This document shows positions 4,011-55,990 of a DNA stretch of 64,000 nucleotides, piece by piece. A program made the position numbers and the translations under genes. Origin of the DNA: an uncultured archaeon. GTDB lineage: Archaea > EX4484-52 > JAADEF01. The notes beneath the pieces were generated by a model. It was not told the origin of the DNA. It searched no databases and saw nothing but the letters and a program-made list of their open reading frames with translations. Each line of letters starts with the position of its first letter. The first letter of the stretch is position 1. The stretch is taken from contig CAYOWP010000004.1 in NCBI GenBank assembly GCA_964407715.1, positions 9,668 to 73,667 of the forward strand, in the 5' to 3' direction.

Positions 4011-4056
4011 AAAGTTAATTATAATATAAGGAAATTAAATATATTTTTTTAGAAAT

Positions 4057-4557
4057 TTACCATTTCCATCCTTCTTTTCTCATCAATCCAATAATATTTG
4101 TACATTCAACTCCAAATTGCTTACAAACAAAGGGAATATTAACCTTGTTTGGTCTAAATCTCTCTTCTGTGATTATTACCCTTACTTCAACTTTTGGTAC
4201 TAATTTGTATTGTTTTTCTTTTTCCAAAGCTAACGCTATAAGCCAAGGATCAGCATCTATCTCTTTATCGGTGTCTATTATTCCTGGAAATTTGGCAGTG
4301 ATATCTTTCATAATCTTTATTTGTTGAGGTGTAATATCTTTAAACATAGTCCTTCTTTCTTTTGCCCACTTATATGCTGAATCATACTTTTTTGAAAGTT
4401 CCTTTAAAACAAATTTATGAGAGATTAATCTCTCTTCTCTAATAAGTCCATCTAAATTCTTCCATAATCTCGGAAAAATGTCTAAAGGATATAACCTAAA
4501 TAAATCTATTATCGAACATGTGTCTATAATATATATGAATCTCTTGGTATGGTTCAT
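4057..4557 (-). CDS. DUF4411 PIN-like protein (putative toxin component)
   Basis: 166 aa; N-terminal IIDTCSIID acidic PIN-like motif and FPRLWKNL motif typical of DUF4411; 5-nt gap to upstream ImmA gene. Confidence 0.55.
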   Translation of the reverse strand: MNHTKRFIYIIDTCSIIDLFRLYPLDIFPRLWKNLDGLIREERLISHKFVLKELSKKYDSAYKWAKERRTMFKDITPQQIKIMKDITAKFPGIIDTDKEIDADPWLIALALEKEKQYKLVPKVEVRVIITEERFRPNKVNIPFVCKQFGVECTNIIGLMRKEGWKW

Positions 4558-4562
4558 CCTTA

Positions 4563-5723
4563 TTACCTCCTAAGAAAAGAAAGTATTTTCTCGTAATGGT
4601 TAGATTTTATCCCCAGATATTCCAAAGCTTGATCAAATGTTATATTTCCTTTTTCAAGATTCACTTCAACCAAGGAGATAAACTTCTCACCTTTTTCAAC
4701 TATACACCTTTTATATGGTGGTAAAAATCCTTCTTTTTCAGCAAATTTCTCCTTTCTTATCATTTCCTCATATTTTTCTTTAGTTAAATAACCCAACTTT
4801 ACCATATTGTAAAGTAGCATGCCTTTACTGATTTTATATCTTTTAGACAATTTTCTTAGCGTATCTTTTTCAAAAAGCACTGTTTTGTTTTCATCAAATA
4901 TTTTCTTAGCTATTTTTTGCGGAAATAAAAATTCAGAAGCAAAATCATTGCACCATTTTTCTATCTTGTTAATTTTTATTTTATCCAATAATGACAAGGA
5001 TTCCTCAGGTAAATCTATTCCAGATCTTTTTAGTAAAATATGCCCAAATTCATGAATAAGCGTGAATAATCTTGGTTCGACCTTTTCTTTGGAGTTTATA
5101 ACGATTACGAAAGGTTCTTCATCCGCTAGCGTAAATCCACGAGCATCTTCAATAGGCATTGGAATTTGAAATACGAAAATATTCAAATTTTCAATCTTTT
5201 TTCTGAGAAAATTGAATGCCTCATACGCATTTCTCCATCTTGTTTGAACTTCTTCATCTATTCCAAAATCATCCCTATATTCTTTAGCTATTTCTAATGG
5301 ATCTTGTTCTATGCTAACATGTTTTATGGTTGGCTTTGTACTTATTCCCAAATTTTCAAGTAAGCTCTTGGCAATTTTTTGTAATCTTCTTGCTAATCTA
5401 ATAGCCAAAAGAGTTTCTCTGCTAAAAACTCCTTCCTTATCTGGTAACATTCTATAATCCTTAGGTAGTGGTTTTTCTTTTGGTGGAGCCGGCAAGAAAA
5501 ATACAGATAAAGGCCTTTTAACATACTTAGCTAAATTTTCTAATTGTCTAAGAGTAGGTTTCTTCTCACCAATTAACCAAGCTTTTATATTCTCTTCCGA
5601 AACTTTGAGCTTTTTACTTAGCTCTTCAACTGTCCATCCAGAGGTCTCAATAGCCCATCTGAGCACTTCTGGCTTAACCTCAACCTCAAATGTTTTGGTT
5701 GTCATTTTTTCATCCCCTTTCAA
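4563..5723 (-). CDS. HTH (XRE-like) domain fused to ImmA/IrrE family zinc metallopeptidase
   Basis: N-terminal helix-turn-helix (WTVEELSKKLKVSEENIKAWL); HEFGH (HExxH) zinc-binding motif of the COG2856/ImmA family. Confidence 0.7.
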   Translation of the reverse strand: MKGDEKMTTKTFEVEVKPEVLRWAIETSGWTVEELSKKLKVSEENIKAWLIGEKKPTLRQLENLAKYVKRPLSVFFLPAPPKEKPLPKDYRMLPDKEGVFSRETLLAIRLARRLQKIAKSLLENLGISTKPTIKHVSIEQDPLEIAKEYRDDFGIDEEVQTRWRNAYEAFNFLRKKIENLNIFVFQIPMPIEDARGFTLADEEPFVIVINSKEKVEPRLFTLIHEFGHILLKRSGIDLPEESLSLLDKIKINKIEKWCNDFASEFLFPQKIAKKIFDENKTVLFEKDTLRKLSKRYKISKGMLLYNMVKLGYLTKEKYEEMIRKEKFAEKEGFLPPYKRCIVEKGEKFISLVEVNLEKGNITFDQALEYLGIKSNHYEKILSFLRR

Positions 5724-5937
5724 ACAATATACCTAACCAAGCAAATAACAAACCTAATATAAAGACTATTATCCTTTCACTAAAGTTTAGATTAGAAACA
5801 AAAATAGATATAACTATTGCTACAAATCCTAACAATACTGCCATAGCTGTCCCCGAAAGAATATTATTACTCATCTTTTTCACCTCCTCCACCAAACACC
5901 CACTAGCATAGGATTTTATTTTCTCTATCTGCTCCAT
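5710..5937 (-). CDS. small two-TM membrane protein
   Basis: 75 aa; two hydrophobic helices; overlaps the ImmA gene start by 14 nt, consistent with translational coupling. Confidence 0.3.
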   Translation of the reverse strand: MEQIEKIKSYASGCLVEEVKKMSNNILSGTAMAVLLGFVAIVISIFVSNLNFSERIIVFILGLLFAWLGILFERG

Positions 5938-6104
5938 TTTTCTAAGAATTTTATTAATTGCTTTATCTCATTTCTTGCCTCTGGTGGTATAATTATGTTA
6001 CTAGTAGTTTTCCAAGTACCATTCCATCTTGATTCTGCTATCGTAAAATAAAAATCAACAGGATGACTTTTTGAATTTATTATGACATGATTAGGTCTTT
6101 TCAT
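5925..6104 (-). CDS. possible 59-aa protein at the head of the ImmA/DUF4411 operon
   Basis: Hand-translated minus-strand ORF MKRPNHVIINSKSHPVDFYFTIAESRWNGTWKTT...; purine-rich GGATGGGAGAGG immediately 5' of the ATG; 13-nt overlap with the next gene; below the 60-aa cut-off of the ORF track. Confidence 0.3.
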   Translation of the reverse strand: MKRPNHVIINSKSHPVDFYFTIAESRWNGTWKTTSNIIIPPEARNEIKQLIKFLEKWSR

Positions 6105-6170
6105 CCTCTCCCATCCTTCACTGCCAAATCTCTCAAGAATTAGGAATTATATTTTATAAGATGGGTAAAA

Positions 6171-6199
6171 AATTTATAAATTTTTTGAATTCGGGAGGC
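6171..6199 (+). promoter_or_regulatory. TATA-like box (AATTTATAAATTTTTT) and GGGAGG ribosome-binding site upstream of the RNA methyltransferase gene
   Basis: A/T-rich TATA-like element ~40 nt and GGGAGG ~16-21 nt upstream of the ATG at 6214. Confidence 0.3.
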
Positions 6200-6213
6200 A
6201 TTTCAAAAGTATT

Positions 6214-7176
6214 ATGGATAACAAAAAAGAGAGCATACCGATTATTCCTTCTGAGTTCAAGGCAAGGTATCACAAACTTTTGGGCAAGGAAAACAAAACA
6301 TTCTTAAGATATTGCATGAAACCCCTAAAAAAGAGCATACGTCTCAATCCCATAAAAACAGATATTAAGGAAATCAAAAAAAGGTTAGAGGAAAAATATG
6401 GATGGAAACTCAAAAAGATTCCATGGTATAAATATGGCTTCTGGATAGAAAATGAAGATGTAAAGGAAGGTGTTGTTGGAAATACATTAGAACATTTTAT
6501 GGGATATTATTATGTGCAGGAAGCTGCATCAATGATTCCTCCTGTTGTTCTTGATCCAAATGAAGATGATTTAGTATTGGATATGTGCGCAGCTCCAGGA
6601 TCAAAAACAACACAAATATGTGAGATGATAAACAATAAAGGCACAATAATAGCAAATGATGTAGATATTCCAAGAATAAAGGCATTAAGGTTTAACATAG
6701 AAAAACTTGGATGTGCCAATGTTGTTGTTACAAGAATGGATGGAAGAGAATTTAGCAAAACTAAGTTGAAATTTGACAAAGTACTAGTGGATGCGCCATG
6801 CTCTGCAGAGGGTACAATACGAAAGGATTGGAAAGCATTATCAAGGTGGAGCATAAATCTAATAAAAAGCATTTCAGGATTGCAAAAGAAATTGATATTG
6901 GCTGCTTATGATTCTTTAAAGGAAGGTGGTACACTTGTGTATTCAACGTGTACTCTTTCTCCAGAAGAAAATGAAGGAGTCATAAATTATCTCATAGAGA
7001 ATAGAGAGGGAGTCAAAATAAAGAAAATAGATATTCCTGGGATTAAATATCATAAAGGAGTCGTTGAATGGGAAAAAGAAAAGTATTGCTCAGATGTAAA
7101 GAAAATAGCAAGAATATATCCACATGATAACGACACAGAAGGATTTGTAATAGCAAAAATTGTCAAGGAAACATGA
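6214..7176 (+). CDS. NOL1/NOP2/Sun-family RNA cytosine-C5 methyltransferase
   Basis: SAM-binding DMCAAPGSKT motif, catalytic PCS and TC motifs (DAPCSAEGT, YSTCTLSPEENE). Confidence 0.8.
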   Translation: MDNKKESIPIIPSEFKARYHKLLGKENKTFLRYCMKPLKKSIRLNPIKTDIKEIKKRLEEKYGWKLKKIPWYKYGFWIENEDVKEGVVGNTLEHFMGYYYVQEAASMIPPVVLDPNEDDLVLDMCAAPGSKTTQICEMINNKGTIIANDVDIPRIKALRFNIEKLGCANVVVTRMDGREFSKTKLKFDKVLVDAPCSAEGTIRKDWKALSRWSINLIKSISGLQKKLILAAYDSLKEGGTLVYSTCTLSPEENEGVINYLIENREGVKIKKIDIPGIKYHKGVVEWEKEKYCSDVKKIARIYPHDNDTEGFVIAKIVKET

Positions 7177-7205: not shown

Positions 7206-7500
7206 ACTTGGTTAAGAGGAAAGATAAGCTCGTAGGAGGTCATCCAACAGCAGCTAACCTTTTTGATTGGTTAGCTGCTCCTAAAGCCCTTGTGTTAGCG
7301 ATCTCCTCGCGTTAACCAGTTATTTTTAAAAAATGGTTAAGGGGAAAATGTCCTCTTAATGAAGCACATTGCAGCAGCTAACCTCAGAAAGCGGTTAGGA
7401 AGCTGCTAACCTCTTTGAGTGGTTAGCTGCTTCAAAACCTTTGGGAAAAGTGGTATCTTCGCATTAACCAATCTCAGATCAGTTGCATTTCGGGGTGTAA
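7206..7500. repeat. Repeat locus R1: GTTAACC hairpin plus AGCAGCTAACC/GGTTAGCTGCT hairpin family
   Basis: Perfect hairpin CAGCAGCTAACC-N9-GGTTAGCTGCTC at 7248-7280; CGCGTTAACCA...TGGTTAAGGGG hairpin at 7308-7344; further GGTTAGGAAGCTGCTAACC copies. Confidence 0.8.
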
Positions 7501-14395: not shown

Positions 14396-14945
14396 GCCTT
14401 TGGAAAGTGATTTTCCCTGCGTTAACCAGTTATTTTGATAAATATGGTTAACGGGAGAGAGAGCCATTTGAGAGAGCTGAGTATAGTATGATAGCCTTTG
14501 AAAGCAGTTAGGAAGCAACTAACCTTTAAAAGCGGTTAGCTGCTCTAAAATCTTTGTGTTAGTGATATCTTCCCGTTAACCAATTTTTTATTTTTAAAAA
14601 TGGTTAAGGGGAAGTATACCTTCTCAAAGGATATCTTACAGCAGCTAACCATTTCAAAGCAGTTAGGAAGCAGCTAACCTTTTAGGGAAGGTTACCATAC
14701 TCCTAAGCCTTTGTGTTAGTGATATCTTCGCGTTAACCAATTTTTTATTTTTAAAAATGGTTAAGGGGAAAAATACCTCATCAAAGAATATCAAACAGCA
14801 GCTAACCTTAAATTGGGTTACTATGCTGTAAAACCTTAGTTATAGTGATATCTTCGCGTTAACCAGTTATATTCAAATAAAAAACATGGTTAAATGGAAA
14901 ACCTGACCATCTGAAAAACCATGGTAGAGCAGCTACCCAAAATAA
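14396..14945. repeat. Repeat locus R2a: ~3.5 tandem ~150-bp units of the GTTAACC-hairpin / GCTGCTAACC family
   Basis: Each unit starts GATATCTTC[C/G]CGTTAACCA...TGGTTAAGGGGAA, followed by CAGCAGCTAACC-N9-(G)GTTAGGAAGCAGCTAACC. Confidence 0.8.
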
Positions 14946-15001
14946 ATGGGTTAAGAAGCGAAAAGTTTCTGAAAAGGATAGTATGGAGCAACATGGATAG
15001 T

Positions 15002-15156
15002 GGCATTATCCAATCATTCTCCATTTGTTAAGCGGAAGAGTAACCTCTTAAAGAACCGCATTAAAGTAGCGAACCTTATAGAGCTGATGCGATTACCGCT
15101 ATAAGTGCTATTTGCGCGTTAAATTTCCGCTTAACAATAAAAAATTTTGGACAAAG
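15002..15156. mobile_element. MITE-like element (short copy) with terminal inverted repeats
   Basis: 5' GGCATTATCCAATCATTC...TTGTTAAGCGGAAGA and 3' TTTCCGCTTAACAATAAAAAATTTTGGACAAAG are inverted complements; shares the AAGAACCGCATTAAAGTAGCGAACC core with copies at 38.1, 44.1 and 45.7 kb. Confidence 0.65.
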
Positions 15157-30415: not shown

Positions 30416-31045
30416 TCGCCTGTTAACCATAATTTGTTGAAAATGGTTAACGGGAAGAAATCGCTCTTCCAAAGCTTTGCGGCGGGATATCCTTTTTTGA
30501 AGGTTAGGTGCTTCACAACCGCTTTGAAATGTTAGCTGCTCTTATGTGTTTTCTTAGAGGGTTAGGTTTCCCGTTAACCAATTTTTTATTGAGAAGATTA
30601 TGGTTAACGGGAAGAAATCGCTATCACAAAAGTTTTTTTGAGTGCGCTATCCTCTTTTAAAAGGTTATCTGCTTCCTAACCGGTTTATTAGGTTAGCTGC
30701 TCTTATGTGCTTCATTAAGGTGACATCTTCCCGTTAACCAATTTTTTATTGAGAAGATTATGGTTAACGGGAAGAAATCGCTATCACTAAGGCTTCGCAG
30801 CATGCTAACCTTTATCAAGGGTTAGCTGCTTCCAAACCGCTTTAAAAGGTTAGCTGCTCTTATGTGTTTTCTTAGAGGGTTAGGTTTCCCGTTAACCATA
30901 TTTTTATTGAGAAGATTATGGTTAACGGGAAGAAATCGCTCTTCCAAAGCTTTGCAGCATGCTAACCTTTATCAAGGGTTATCTGCTTCCAAACCGCTCT
31001 GAAAGGTTAGCTGCTGTAATATGCTTCATTAAGATGACCTTTACC
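30416..31045. repeat. Repeat locus R3: ~4 tandem ~160-bp units
   Basis: Perfect hairpin CCCGTTAACCA-N20-TGGTTAACGGG at 30570-30611, 30730-30771 and 30888-30929 (period 158-160 bp); each followed by AGCATGCTAACC-N9-GGTTAGCTGCT and further GGTTAGCTGCTCTTATGTG half-sites. Confidence 0.85.
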
Positions 31046-38064: not shown

Positions 38065-38306
38065 GCATTGTCCAATAATTCTCTATTAATAAAATTTTGT
38101 TAAGCGGAAACATAATCTATCAAAGAAGCGCATTAGAGCAGCAAACATTATAGAGCTAATGCGATTGTAAGAGCAAATTTTCTCGTTAACAAATCCTTAT
38201 TAAAAAATTATTGGACAATTTGTTAATAGGAGGCATAGCCATATTCAACGGGTTAACTGCTCTAATGCGCTTCTGCGAGAGGTTATGTTTCTGCTTTACA
38301 ATGCCG
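38065..38306. mobile_element. MITE-like element copy with an inverted partial duplicate
   Basis: 5' TIR GCATTGTCCAATAATTCTCTATTAATAAAATTTTGTTAAGCGGAAAC; 3' TTCTCGTTAACAAATCCTTATTAAAAAATTATTGGACAAT; then an inverted fragment GGTTAACTGCTCTAATGCGCTTCT, the reverse complement of the AGAAGCGCATTAGAGCAGC core. Confidence 0.7.
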
Positions 38307-44118: not shown

Positions 44119-44148
44119 AATTAGATAACTCTAAAAGAAATTTTAAAA

Positions 44149-44522
44149 GCATTGTCCAATAATTCTTTGTTGTTAAGCGGAAAAGTAACCTCTTAAAGAA
44201 GCGCATTAAAGTAGCGAACCTTGTAGAGCTAATGCGATTTAAAAGGTTAGCTGCTTTATTGCCTTTTGAGAAGGTACATCTCTAACCTCTCGTTAAAGAT
44301 TAGCTGCTCTGATGTGTGTTGTTGATGTGGTATGCTTCCTGTTAACCATGTTTTATTAAAAACATAGTTAACGAGAAAATATCTTCATTCACTCATGGAA
44401 TGCAGCATGTTAATCTTTCGTTAAATGTTAGTTGCTTCATAACCATTATAAAGAGTTAGCCGCTATAAGTGCTATTTGCGCGTTAAATTTCCGCTTAACA
44501 ATAAAGAATTATTGGACAATAC
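44149..44522. mobile_element. MITE-like composite element (374 bp) bounded by ~35-bp terminal inverted repeats and carrying hairpin-repeat cargo
   Basis: 5' GCATTGTCCAATAATTCTTTGTTGTTAAGCGGAAAAG; 3' TTTCCGCTTAACAATAAAGAATTATTGGACAATAC (reverse complement); the interior has GGTTAGCTGCT, GATTAGCTGCTC and a long GTTAACCATGTTTTATTAAAAACATAGTTAAC hairpin. Confidence 0.75.
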
Positions 44523-44608
44523 CTTTTTAAAAAGTATGGCGATAAATTTAAAAAATTTTAAAACATAATTATAATATATCCTCTGTAAAATCAGGAGGTG
44601 AATAAGAA

Positions 44609-45656: not shown

Positions 45657-45784
45657 GGCATTGTCCAATAATTCCCTATTAACAAAATTTGTTAAGCGGA
45701 AAAATAGCCTTTTAAAGAAGCGCATCAGAGCAGCAAAGCTTATTGAGCTAAGCGATTGTAGGAGCAAATTTTCTCGTTAACAAA
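45657..45784. repeat. Truncated MITE-like copy (5' TIR plus core only)
   Basis: GGCATTGTCCAATAATTCCCTATTAACAAAATTTGTTAAGCGGAAAAA...AAGAAGCGCATCAGAGCAGCAAAG...TTCTCGTTAACAAAAC; lacks the distal TTATTGGACAAT. Confidence 0.65.
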
Positions 45785-55710: not shown

Positions 55711-55990
55711 AATGGTTAACGGGAAGCATAACCTCTTCTCAAGGCATATCACAGCAGGTAACCTCTCCGAGCGTTTAGGAAGCAGCTACCCTGAAGAAAG
55801 GTTAGCATGCTTTTATGTGTTTGGTATTGTGATATCTGCGCGTTAACCAATTTTTATTTATTCAAAATAAATAAAAATTCGTTATCAGAAAACATACCAT
55901 CTCAAAAACCACATTGGAGCAGCTAATATTTTATTTTGGTTAGGTGCTATAAAACCTTGCAAAAGATGAGATCTTCGCGTTAACCATAAC
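55711..55990. repeat. Repeat locus R7: degenerate copies of the GTTAACC / GCTAACC hairpin family upstream of tRNA-Glu
   Basis: TGGTTAACGGGAAG, CACAGCAGGTAACC, TTTAGGAAGCAGCTACCC; CGCGTTAACCAA-TTTTTATTTATTcaaaATAAATAAAAA long palindrome; GATCTTCGCGTTAACCA. Confidence 0.7.

Follow-up and report, generated by a model that had tools for sequence, protein, structure and literature searches.

The characterised member of the family to which the genes described here belong is the VapB52/VapC52 pair of M. tuberculosis (Rv2515c/Rv2514c; PDB 9VZY/9VZZ; Singh et al., NAR 2026, PMC13273310). VapBC52 comprises a large antitoxin and a tRNA-cleaving PIN toxin in 1:2 stoichiometry, with antitoxin and toxin held in one complex in 9VZY, and its overexpression is reported to give phage resistance (PMC13273310). 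ssDNA is reported to activate VapB52 to cleave off its own N-terminal domain at an FR motif, and a proposed ‘cysteine switch loop’, in which a cysteine about 9 residues after HExxH serves as a fourth zinc ligand, would auto-inhibit the peptidase (PMC13273310). Systems of this kind had been predicted before. A ‘three-component’ toxin–antitoxin (TA) arrangement of a fused Xre-COG2856 protein with a PIN or RelE partner was proposed with Rv2515c as an example (Makarova, Wolf & Koonin 2009, PMC2701414), and DUF4411.1 was later placed downstream of fused HTH-DUF955 proteins, with 13 archaeal members counted (Matelska et al. 2017, PMC5499597).

More distant systems share parts of this design. RosmerTA (RmrT/RmrA, Millman et al. 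2022) likewise has an antitoxin with a zinc peptidase and a helix-turn-helix (HTH), but its toxins are described as of unknown function, whereas the toxin here is a PIN-like DUF4411 protein with no RmrT match. CapP/CapH, ImmA/ImmR of ICEBs1 and IrrE(PprI)/DdrO of Deinococcus share the M78 fold and a protease logic responsive to DNA damage or ssDNA. In those systems, however, the peptidase cleaves a separate XRE repressor and thereby induces transcription, whereas the locus considered here encodes HTH and peptidase in one chain, and the proposed outcome is that a bound toxin would be set free. None of the adjoining genes belongs to a CBASS, an ICE or a repair regulon.

The window analysed here is the whole stretch of 64,000 nucleotides of an AT-rich archaeal chromosome. 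The functional unit in it is most likely two genes, a DUF4411 toxin and an HTH-M78 antitoxin, which together would form a VapBC52-type TA or abortive-infection module. The features of the locus are as follows.

4057..4557, minus strand: gene for a DUF4411 / VapC52-like PIN-domain nuclease (putative toxin), 166 aa
4563..5705, minus strand: gene for a VapB52-like antitoxin/sensor with XRE-HTH, M78 zinc peptidase and helical C-terminal domain, 380 aa
5040..5054, minus strand: HEFGH zinc-binding motif, antitoxin codons 218-222 (invariant residues)
5451..5456, minus strand: ‘FR motif’ equivalent, antitoxin codons Y84-R85 (alignment to 9vzy_A)
5487..5645, minus strand: XRE-type helix-turn-helix, antitoxin codons 21-73 (PF01381)
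5710..5874, minus strand: gene for a small two-TM membrane protein, 54 aa (Shine–Dalgarno sequence and lengths of relatives)
5875..5937, minus strand: 21-codon relic, read as the 3' end of a lost Type IIG restriction–modification (RM) / TaqI_C-domain gene (homology to L003)
5925..6104, minus strand: 59-aa orphan ORF in junction DNA, a lineage-specific gene or 5' leader
6105..6213, no strand: divergent intergenic region, predicted promoter region (sequence reading)
6214-7176, plus strand: gene for an RsmB/F-like methyltransferase, on the other side of the divergent intergenic region

The three Pfam profiles by which the earlier note proposed to check the locus are all matched: PF14367 (DUF4411) over its full length by the 166-aa toxin (E=8.7e-28; gathering score 23.5), and PF06114 (Peptidase_M78) and PF01381 (HTH_3), each above gathering, by antitoxin residues 178-306 (E=9.5e-16) and 21-73 (E=2.6e-6). 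Among PDB chains, 9vzy_A matches the antitoxin at E=9.3e-23 from the single sequence and 4e-34 with a profile (positions 10-375), and 9vzy_D, a ‘DUF4411 family protein’, matches the toxin at E=1.8e-9 and 4.4e-34, respectively. Judged by these alignments, the two large genes belong to the VapB52/VapC52 family. The earlier suggestion that an ImmA-type peptidase and a DUF4411 protein make up a TA-like or phage-sensing module is thus borne out by the profiles, and a member of the family has since been characterised both structurally and functionally. Catalytic residues are intact in both proteins: the antitoxin zinc-site residues H218, E219 and H222 and the third ligand E249 are invariant in the homologue alignment, as are the toxin acidic residues D12, E53, D103 and E132 among 29 homologues. 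Both genes are under purifying selection (dN/dS = 0.10 for each, versus the sister locus). They are separated by a 5-nt spacer, and a Shine–Dalgarno (SD) sequence, GGAGGT, precedes the toxin ATG by 7 nt.

Models of other families also find the antitoxin. The NCBIfam spr1629 antitoxin model matches at 2e-20, below the model's cut-off, PADLOC capP matches at E=1.9e-18, and sixteen PADLOC RmrA models hit most of the protein, with E=2.2e-21 and 74 bits for the strongest of them; the RmrA scores have no curated cut-off and are modest for a protein of 380 aa. For the DUF4411 protein, none of the PADLOC models, those for RmrT toxins included, gave a match at E<=1. In the AF2 model of the antitoxin (pLDDT 81), linkers 86-89 and 321-338 are of low confidence, and the C-terminal domain is a set of helices (330-379) modelled with moderate confidence only (pLDDT about 50-60). 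Foldseek, run against a PDB copy that ends in April 2026 and predates 9VZY, returned IrrE/PprI structures as the top matches, and also PrpR and XRE/C-protein HTHs; matches to the N-terminal domain include ImmR, SinR, CapH-NTD, the DdrO DNA-binding domain and RM controller proteins. This profile (IrrE/PprI, PrpR and an RM-controller-like HTH) agrees with that reported for VapB52.

Likenesses to VapBC52 extend from gene order to short motifs. In both, a large antitoxin gene precedes a DUF4411 PIN toxin gene on the same strand; the antitoxin has an HTH N-terminal domain, an M78 domain with HExxH and a downstream Glu, and a helical C-terminal domain; an aromatic-Arg motif lies in the linker between the N-terminal and middle domains; the PIN acidic residues are present; and both chains are matched end to end. 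By contrast, the present locus has an archaeal host, low identity to the mycobacterial proteins, YR rather than FR, no equivalent of C229, an antitoxin about 35 aa shorter, a small TM gene upstream and close relatives that are coupled to RM genes. In the systems of Makarova 2009 and Matelska 2017, too, a DUF4411 PIN-like gene comes after a fused HTH-COG2856 gene; those descriptions are computational only, and the archaeal clade here is large and often RM-linked. The earlier note had singled out the HTH–peptidase fusion as a special feature. It is instead the standard architecture of the family, described in 2009 and 2017 and represented by 784 full-length relatives in our searches.

The putative cleavage site is also conserved. 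Y84-R85 aligns with the ...RDFRRL... segment of 9vzy_A as a conservative F-to-Y variant; R85 is invariant, Y84 is nearly so, [FY]R occurs in essentially all relatives, and the low-pLDDT linker 86-89 follows directly. In the mechanism that we propose by analogy with VapBC52, one antitoxin molecule would use its N- and C-terminal domains to clamp a toxin dimer, and its HTH would probably also autoregulate transcription. A stress or infection cue, which is ssDNA in the characterised member, would activate the peptidase, which would then cut off its own N-terminal domain at the [F/Y]R linker, Y84-R85. The freed PIN toxin would cleave tRNAs, arresting the cell or the virus. The toxicity, trigger, self-cleavage and RNA target that we consider most likely here are all carried over from VapBC52, and because identity to VapB52/VapC52 is low, the substrate and trigger may differ.

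One step of the characterised mechanism cannot be carried over. The alignment to 9vzy_A leaves a gap in the antitoxin at the position of VapB52 C229, and a Cys within 16 aa after HExxH is found in 0/40 close relatives, versus 19/27 and 32/87 in two sets of more distant relatives. A conserved SG[IV][DS][LM]PE loop stands in place of GxCDL in the archaeal clade. Because the clade lacks the Cys of the switch proposed to auto-inhibit VapB52 and CapP, its activation step cannot be identical. The cysteine switch belongs to the mechanism of the characterised member and does not define the family, and the activation proposed for it cannot be universal, as it is missing from the whole archaeal clade.

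The fold matches raise the question of whether the locus is instead a switch of the ImmR/ImmA or IrrE/DdrO type, in which cleavage of a separate repressor by the peptidase would induce a mobile element or a stress regulon, with DUF4411 as cargo under regulation rather than as a directly bound toxin. Homology links the M78 domain to ImmA and IrrE, and the HTH resembles the DNA-binding domains of ImmR and DdrO. However, no separate XRE repressor, integrase, phage or ICE gene lies within about 10 kb; HTH and peptidase form one chain, as in VapB52, which is its own substrate and binds its toxin directly; and M78-DUF4411 adjacency is tightly conserved. We regard such a switch as extremely improbable. 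Window neighbours over the same distance of about 10 kb are housekeeping genes (RsmB/F-like, AdoMetDC, PMM, NurA, ValRS, prefoldin and eIF6), with no integrase, phage or CBASS genes among them, and an Rfam search returned tRNAs as its sole matches. The stretch is assigned to the archaea by its neighbours eIF6, prefoldin, NurA and aIF2.

The adjacency just mentioned holds across the family. DUF4411 lies directly downstream of the antitoxin in 30/32 close, 25/28 intermediate and 25/35 distant relatives, and the pair has spread horizontally among archaea and bacteria. A two-gene VapBC52-type module, acquired as a block behind an RM gene and accompanied by the TM gene as a passenger or optional accessory, is the reading that we hold with good, though not full, confidence.

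The two small upstream ORFs had suggested something more elaborate, namely an overlapping four-gene operon. All four minus-strand ORFs claimed in the earlier note are present, and the longest-ORF calls are 4057-4557 (166 aa), 4563-5723 (386 aa from TTG), 5710-5937 (75 aa) and 5925-6104 (59 aa). With these boundaries the 13-nt and 14-nt overlaps and the 5-nt spacer are as described, but both overlaps require longest-ORF starts that are probably wrong. The likeliest start codon of the antitoxin is ATG 5705, not TTG 5723: the ATG has an AGGGGA SD, and gene callers and homologues (380-384 aa) agree on it. An exact protein look-up found no identical entry for the 386-aa TTG-start form, which is consistent with the ATG start. 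From ATG 5705 the antitoxin begins after a 4-nt gap behind the stop of the TM protein, and the 14-nt overlap disappears. Codon 22 of the 75-aa ORF is ATG 5874, with a perfect SD, GGAGGTGA, at 5880-5887 and a 5-nt spacer, whereas our reading of the sequence found no SD before ATG 5937; all 23 of 23 relatives of the TM protein are 45-67 aa long, with the alignment beginning at codon 22. Read in this way, the 75-aa ORF consists of an in-frame 21-codon relic of an RM gene followed by a two-TM protein of 54 aa, and a stretch of 50 nt, with no overlap, separates the end of the 59-aa ORF from the TM gene downstream of it.

The source of the relic can be traced in a sister locus, L003. A block of 81% nt homology with the sister locus ends exactly at 4055 and 5937 (blastn). 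The edge at 5937 corresponds to position 1285 of L003, inside its TaqI_C gene, which runs to 1350 and terminates in an ATGA overlap. The relic tail, MEQIEKIKSY..., resembles ...MGQMEKIKSHPWV... of L003 and also ...MKEIEKIKSHPWV... of a 1093-aa Eco57I/MmeI/TaqI_C enzyme at another locus, L032. Close relatives of the pair are coupled to Type IIG RM genes, and no RM gene occurs elsewhere in the window. We propose that the module (4055-5937) entered as one block, formerly situated behind a Type IIG RM gene of which 21 codons survive. We found no direct or inverted repeats flanking 4055-5937 as insertion scars, and the GC content of the block, 0.32, equals that of the window; at another locus, L006, the pair is AT-richer than its flanks (0.38 versus 0.44-0.49). 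The locus also shows neatly that the remnant of a neighbouring gene can make an ORF look longer than the true gene, here 75 aa instead of 54 aa.

The 54-aa TM gene is a real gene of a small-protein family. The two TM segments originally noted in the 75-aa ORF are confirmed as two hydrophobic segments, and 23 cluster representatives at E<=1e-3 share the motif SGTAMAVLxGF...G...G..FS[KR]G. The protein has no match in Pfam, NCBIfam or PADLOC families. We also considered it as a SLATT pore-former and rejected this: the only NCBIfam SLATT matches are at E=0.12-0.17 (about 12 bits, against cut-offs of 55-60 bits), and PADLOC RTasSLATT matches at E=0.011 along roughly 27 residues within a single TM helix, all far below threshold and probably reflecting TM composition. 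A 55-aa orthologue with 75% aa identity and a one-codon in-frame indel occupies the same position in L003-L005, and a dN/dS of 0.35 between window and sister orthologues indicates some purifying selection.

Could this protein be a lineage-specific accessory, for example a second effector that damages membranes or a modulator that the peptidase releases or regulates, in a three-gene variant limited to this sub-clade and to which the 59-aa ORF is irrelevant? Its position and its spacing of 4 nt from the antitoxin start are conserved in both lineages (the window and L003-L005), it has a strong SD and is under some purifying selection, its relatives repeatedly adjoin defence or mobile genes, and the SLATT-like matches at E 0.01-0.17, weak as they are, point the same way. 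Yet the two lineages that share it are close (81% nt), such that the linkage may be a single inherited accident. Among about 150 related loci, the TM gene lies beside an HTH-M78/DUF4411 pair only here and in the one sister lineage, and it is missing even beside antitoxins at 81% and 70% identity. None of nine other sampled family members adjoins M78/DUF4411 genes; they lie in unrelated, mostly mobile or defence contexts, with heterogeneous neighbours that are not homologous to one another. Neighbours of TM-family members include a Panacea+RelE-like TA system, an SNase-like gene with an ATGA overlap, an RM system accompanied by a transposase, and the L003 RM gene. We consider the three-gene variant unlikely. 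In our preferred reading, the TM gene is a passenger of the two-gene module, or an optional accessory to it, rather than one of its core parts.

The 59-aa ORF, an orphan, belongs to the host side of the junction and may be either a lineage-specific gene or a 5' leader. The SD-like sequence reported for it is present (GGATGGGAGAGG, immediately 5' of its ATG), and its host-trained coding score of 0.228 bits/codon exceeds that of 99% of spurious ORFs and is typical of host genes. A same-strand ORF of at least its length arises in 2.3% of dinucleotide shuffles of the junction. The ORF lies outside the conserved homology block; a search of 5.8 billion proteins returned only its self-match, and 180 related loci contained no match. 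A single-sequence AF2 model shows a beta-hairpin plus helix (pLDDT 69) with nothing at E<0.7 in Foldseek against the PDB. Two other origins were considered and rejected. First, three tblastn matches at E about 0.3 inside DUF4411 genes hinted at a degraded DUF4411 N-terminus, but the DUF4411 HMM gives only 3.4 bits, a score equalled by 37/2000 shuffles, with an hhalign probability of 1.4%, and is not significant. Second, as a candidate part of the lost RM gene it finds no support from the RM proteins of seven loci, which add nothing beyond the 21-34-aa tail. Upstream of the ORF, a 20-nt A/T palindrome, AAAAAATTTATAAATTTTTT, at 6167-6186 and TATA-like TTTATAAA / CTTATAAAATA 45-70 nt upstream of ATG 6104 make 6105..6213 a likely promoter region.

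With both small ORFs in hand, the circuit inferred in the earlier note can be weighed. There, the 59-aa and two-TM proteins would be translationally coupled to the larger genes and feed a membrane signal to the HTH-peptidase, which would control the DUF4411 nuclease. The four ORFs are indeed co-directional and closely packed, the TM gene is real and under some purifying selection, the 59-aa ORF has host-like coding statistics, and elsewhere several proteins of the TM family are encoded next to TA or RM genes. Against this, the overlaps vanish under better-supported start codons, the 59-aa ORF is an orphan without homologues, the TM gene is absent from about 150 other pairs and 0/9 other representatives of its family adjoin M78/DUF4411 genes, and the characterised family member is a two-protein system with a cytoplasmic ssDNA cue (PMC13273310). 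The small ORFs are thus not conserved partners of the pair; the TM gene accompanies it in one sister lineage only. Such lack of conservation in homologous loci is what the earlier note had itself named as telling against its membrane-linked sensor/anti-repressor circuit, and we consider a four-gene circuit very unlikely.

More broadly, the locus is an archaeal copy of a family predicted in 2009 and 2017 and explained mechanistically in 2026, a placement that corrects an over-interpretation of its small neighbours. The two-TM proteins form a small membrane-protein family that had no database entry and is now documented. A three-way variant system, combining peptidase gating without the Cys switch, frequent translational coupling to Type IIG RM and a recruited two-TM component, seems to us an improbable reading. 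The ~55-aa two-TM protein, if recruited, would be a third, membrane-acting or membrane-sensing component of the system in this sub-lineage, and the coupling to Type IIG RM, if true, would make for a layered RM and abortive-infection operon. The VapBC52-type family is abundant and horizontally mobile in archaea, and the frequent Type IIG RM linkage of its pairs hints at a coordinated two-layer defence.

The two genes at the centre of this locus, an HTH-M78 antitoxin and a DUF4411 toxin, read as an archaeal example of a system that is already known and has now been characterised by experiment. They lie among four minus-strand ORFs, whose positions in the earlier note were confirmed by reading the sequence.

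Minus-strand ORFs, in window positions
4057-4557, minus strand: toxin ORF, 166 aa
4563-5723, minus strand: antitoxin ORF, longest form, 386 aa from TTG
5710-5937, minus strand: small TM ORF, longest form, 75 aa
5925-6104, minus strand: orphan ORF, 59 aa

The domains proposed in that note also held up. The 166-aa protein matches the whole PF14367 (DUF4411) profile (E=8.7e-28), and the antitoxin matches PF06114 Peptidase_M78 (E=9.5e-16) and PF01381 HTH_3 (E=2.6e-6), all above the gathering score. At E<=1e-10, 784 relatives of the 380-aa antitoxin were found; the best 120 are full-length proteins sharing 48% identity or more, from Odin-, Woese- and Micrarchaeota, Thermoplasmatota, Methanosarcinales and some bacteria. 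Gene context was compared over 160 retrieved loci; the gene directly after the antitoxin is DUF4411 in 30/32 of the close relatives, 25/28 of the intermediate and 25/35 of the distant ones. Antitoxin residues H218, E219, H222, E249 and R85 and toxin residues D12, E53, D103 and E132 are invariant, and dN/dS against the sister-lineage locus L003 is 0.10 for each gene.

Both proteins find their counterparts in PDB 9VZY, the VapB52/VapC52 complex (Rv2515c/Rv2514c) of M. tuberculosis (PMC13273310): the antitoxin profile matches chain A over positions 10-375 (E=4e-34; single-sequence 9e-23), and the toxin profile matches chain D, a ‘DUF4411 family protein’ (E=4.4e-34; single-sequence 1.8e-9). An AF2 model of the antitoxin reaches pLDDT 81, its low-confidence stretches being the two linkers between domains (86-89 and 321-338); its fold matches, namely IrrE/PprI, PrpR and RM-controller-like HTHs, are also the structural neighbours listed for VapB52. 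VapC52 is a PIN tRNase whose overexpression confers mycobacteriophage resistance, and one VapB52, with an N-terminal HTH, a middle M78 peptidase and a helical C-terminal domain, binds each VapC52 dimer; once activated by ssDNA, the peptidase cleaves at a conserved FR motif and so sheds the N-terminal domain of its own chain (PMC13273310). The HTH-peptidase fusion, previously taken as a distinguishing feature, is in fact the norm, since Rv2515c had already been named as the example of an Xre-COG2856 fusion associated with PIN/RelE toxins (Makarova et al. 2009, PMC2701414) and DUF4411.1 genes were described downstream of fused DUF955-HTH genes (Matelska et al. 2017, PMC5499597).

By homology, the antitoxin would clamp a toxin dimer until a cue activates the M78 peptidase; self-cleavage at Y84-R85, within a YR linker motif in place of the FR of VapB52, would then take off the HTH domain, and the freed PIN toxin would cut tRNAs and so arrest either the cell or a virus infecting it. 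The cue in the model system is ssDNA, but the cysteine of the ‘cysteine switch loop’ (C229 in VapB52, common to CapP) falls in an alignment gap in the window antitoxin, so the cue here may be a different one. Among relatives L003-L095, the replacing loop (window 5013-5039, antitoxin codons 223-231) reads SG[IV][DS][LM]PE in the 40 closest (at least 300 bits), and in all of these the 16 residues that follow HExxH are free of Cys. GxCD[LV] is kept in 19/27 intermediate and 32/87 distant relatives, and many bacterial relatives keep the Cys. This residue, which auto-inhibits VapB52 and CapP, is thus absent throughout the archaeal clade (40/40), where the activation step must differ in detail from that of VapB52.

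Two other assignments were considered. The antitoxin matches PADLOC's RmrA (RosmerTA antitoxin) models with E-values down to about 2e-21, but none of the RmrT models picks up the toxin, and we do not assign the pair to RosmerTA. An ImmR/ImmA- or CapP/CapH-type switch is countered by the window neighbours, which are housekeeping genes (RsmB/F-like methyltransferase, AdoMetDC, PMM, NurA, ValRS) and include no integrase, phage, ICE or CBASS genes.

Taken as longest ORFs, the four do show overlaps of 13 nt and 14 nt, a 5-nt spacer and GGATGGGAGAGG 5' of the 59-aa ATG, but both overlaps appear to be a product of that choice. Gene calls on identical contigs start the antitoxin at ATG 5705, giving 380 aa (homologues, 380-384 aa); AGGGGA precedes this ATG, and TTG 5723 has no Shine-Dalgarno (SD) sequence. 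The TM-protein stop then lies 4 nt before the antitoxin (TGA AAAA ATG). In the ‘75-aa’ ORF, a perfect GGAGGTGA lies 5 nt upstream of codon 22 (ATG 5874), and no SD was found upstream of ATG 5937. The 55-aa L003 orthologue starts at the equivalent of ATG 5874, and the alignment to 23 cluster representatives from an exhaustive HMMER search, all 45-67 aa, begins at codon 22. With this start, the 59-aa ORF stops 50 nt upstream of the TM gene, without overlap.

The remaining 21 codons (5875-5937, MEQIEKIKSY...) read as the remnant of a lost restriction-modification (RM) gene. By blastn, window 4055-5937 and L003 1285-3169 form a single 81%-identical block that begins within a TaqI_C-domain gene of L003, whose stop overlaps the start of the 55-aa gene as ATGA. 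The 21 codons resemble the C-terminal tail of this gene and that of a 1093-aa Eco57I/MmeI/TaqI_C enzyme at the related locus L032; a 1-nt difference brings them into frame with the TM gene, and no RM gene was found elsewhere in the window. The ‘75-aa protein’ is therefore probably a 54-aa protein plus this relic, the window copy having apparently lost its RM neighbour. In 9/33 close relatives, and also in L038, L075 and L003, the gene immediately upstream, in the same orientation, encodes a Type IIG RM enzyme or a large N6/N4 methylase, and its stop often overlaps the next start.

RM-coupled pairs, in positions of each related locus
L032: 723-5649
L009: 1311-5643
L024: 408-5622
L089: 322-5634
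L090: 151-5379
L014: 556-5004
L038: 1021-5656

The upstream Type IIG enzymes (Eco57I/MmeI/TaqI_C) have 880-1224 aa, and an RM or N6_N4 methylase gene occurs in ~1/3 of close archaeal relatives, where the arrangement suggests a co-transcribed RM plus abortive-infection operon. In fold searches, the antitoxin HTH resembles RM controller (C) proteins.

Four grounds mark the 54-aa TM protein as a real gene: an orthologue (75% aa identity, one-codon indel), a dN/dS of 0.35 (12.5 synonymous vs 17.5 non-synonymous differences; neutral expectation about 7 vs 23), a strong SD, and a family with two hydrophobic helices and the signature SGTAMAVLxGF ... G ... G..FS[KR]G. The ORF matches no Pfam, NCBIfam or PADLOC family, and the two-TM family (P0124-P0145; loci L166-L186), for which none of these holds a model, is undescribed. 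Nevertheless, the gene does not generally accompany the pair: of the related loci compared, only those of the sister lineage (L003-L005) have it; L006 (antitoxin 81% identical) has a short AT-rich leader in its place, and in L032 (70%) the RM-gene stop directly overlaps the antitoxin start. None of nine other representatives looked up adjoins M78/DUF4411 genes.

Neighbours of other TM-family genes
divergent M48 peptidase
Panacea + RelE-like pair (TA)
SNase-like gene, ATGA overlap
ribbon-helix-helix-like gene
Type II RM system + DDE transposase
RusA/HTH region

Because these neighbours are varied and show no homology to one another, the family looks like a small gene of mostly mobile or defence-related settings, and its linkage to the pair is most easily explained if the two came together once and were then inherited side by side.

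The 59-aa ORF lies outside the block conserved with L003. Among 5.8 billion proteins it hits only itself, and it matches nothing in the retrieved loci, elsewhere in the window, or in Pfam, NCBIfam or PADLOC. Dinucleotide shuffles of the junction yield an ORF of this length in just 2.3% of cases, and the 3-periodic Markov score of the 59-aa ORF falls where host genes usually do, above 99% of out-of-frame/antisense ORFs. Modelled by AF2 from its sequence alone, it forms, with moderate confidence, a beta-hairpin and helix for which no fold match was found; a resemblance to the DUF4411 N-terminus was weak and not significant. It may be either a lineage-specific gene or a leader, and no evidence was found that ties it to the module. 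A perfect 20-nt A/T palindrome, AAAAAATTTATAAATTTTTT (6167-6186), lies between this ORF and the divergent RsmB/F-like gene and may be a bidirectional TATA element.

The window also holds two dispersed repeat families. One is intergenic, of about 70-165 nt (7267-7415, 14492-14884, 30440-31031, 55712-55986), with core GTGATATCTTCGCGTTAACCA and hairpins TTCCCGTTAACC...GGTTAACGGGAA, in both orientations and short tandem clusters; Rfam gave only 5 tRNAs and no match to it, and its copies are candidates for MITE-like elements or for small structured RNAs. The second, of about 100 nt (14995-15146, 38067-38301, 44140-44544, 45659-45758; ...TTGTTAAGCGGAAA...AAGAAGCGCATTA.AG.AGC...), contains two inverted pairs that are local, plus a pair of 51-nt copies, 98% identical (15096-15146, 44460-44510).

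The earlier note's core, an ImmA-type HTH-peptidase with DUF4411, thus stands, and its coupled small proteins and membrane-linked circuit find no support: the overlaps vanish with better starts, the 59-aa ORF is an orphan, and the TM gene accompanies the pair only here and in one sister lineage. At L006 (4001-5643), in a genome much richer in GC, the pair has a GC content of 0.38 against flanks of 0.44-0.49, with no RM or TM gene upstream, which clearly points to the two genes having been transferred there horizontally, by themselves and recently; conjugative plasmids and two phage-like contigs carry distant homologues. Together with the RM coupling, these features mark the pair as a horizontally mobile defence-island module. 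Of minor interest are the lack of the cysteine switch, the coupling to RM genes and the undescribed small TM family.
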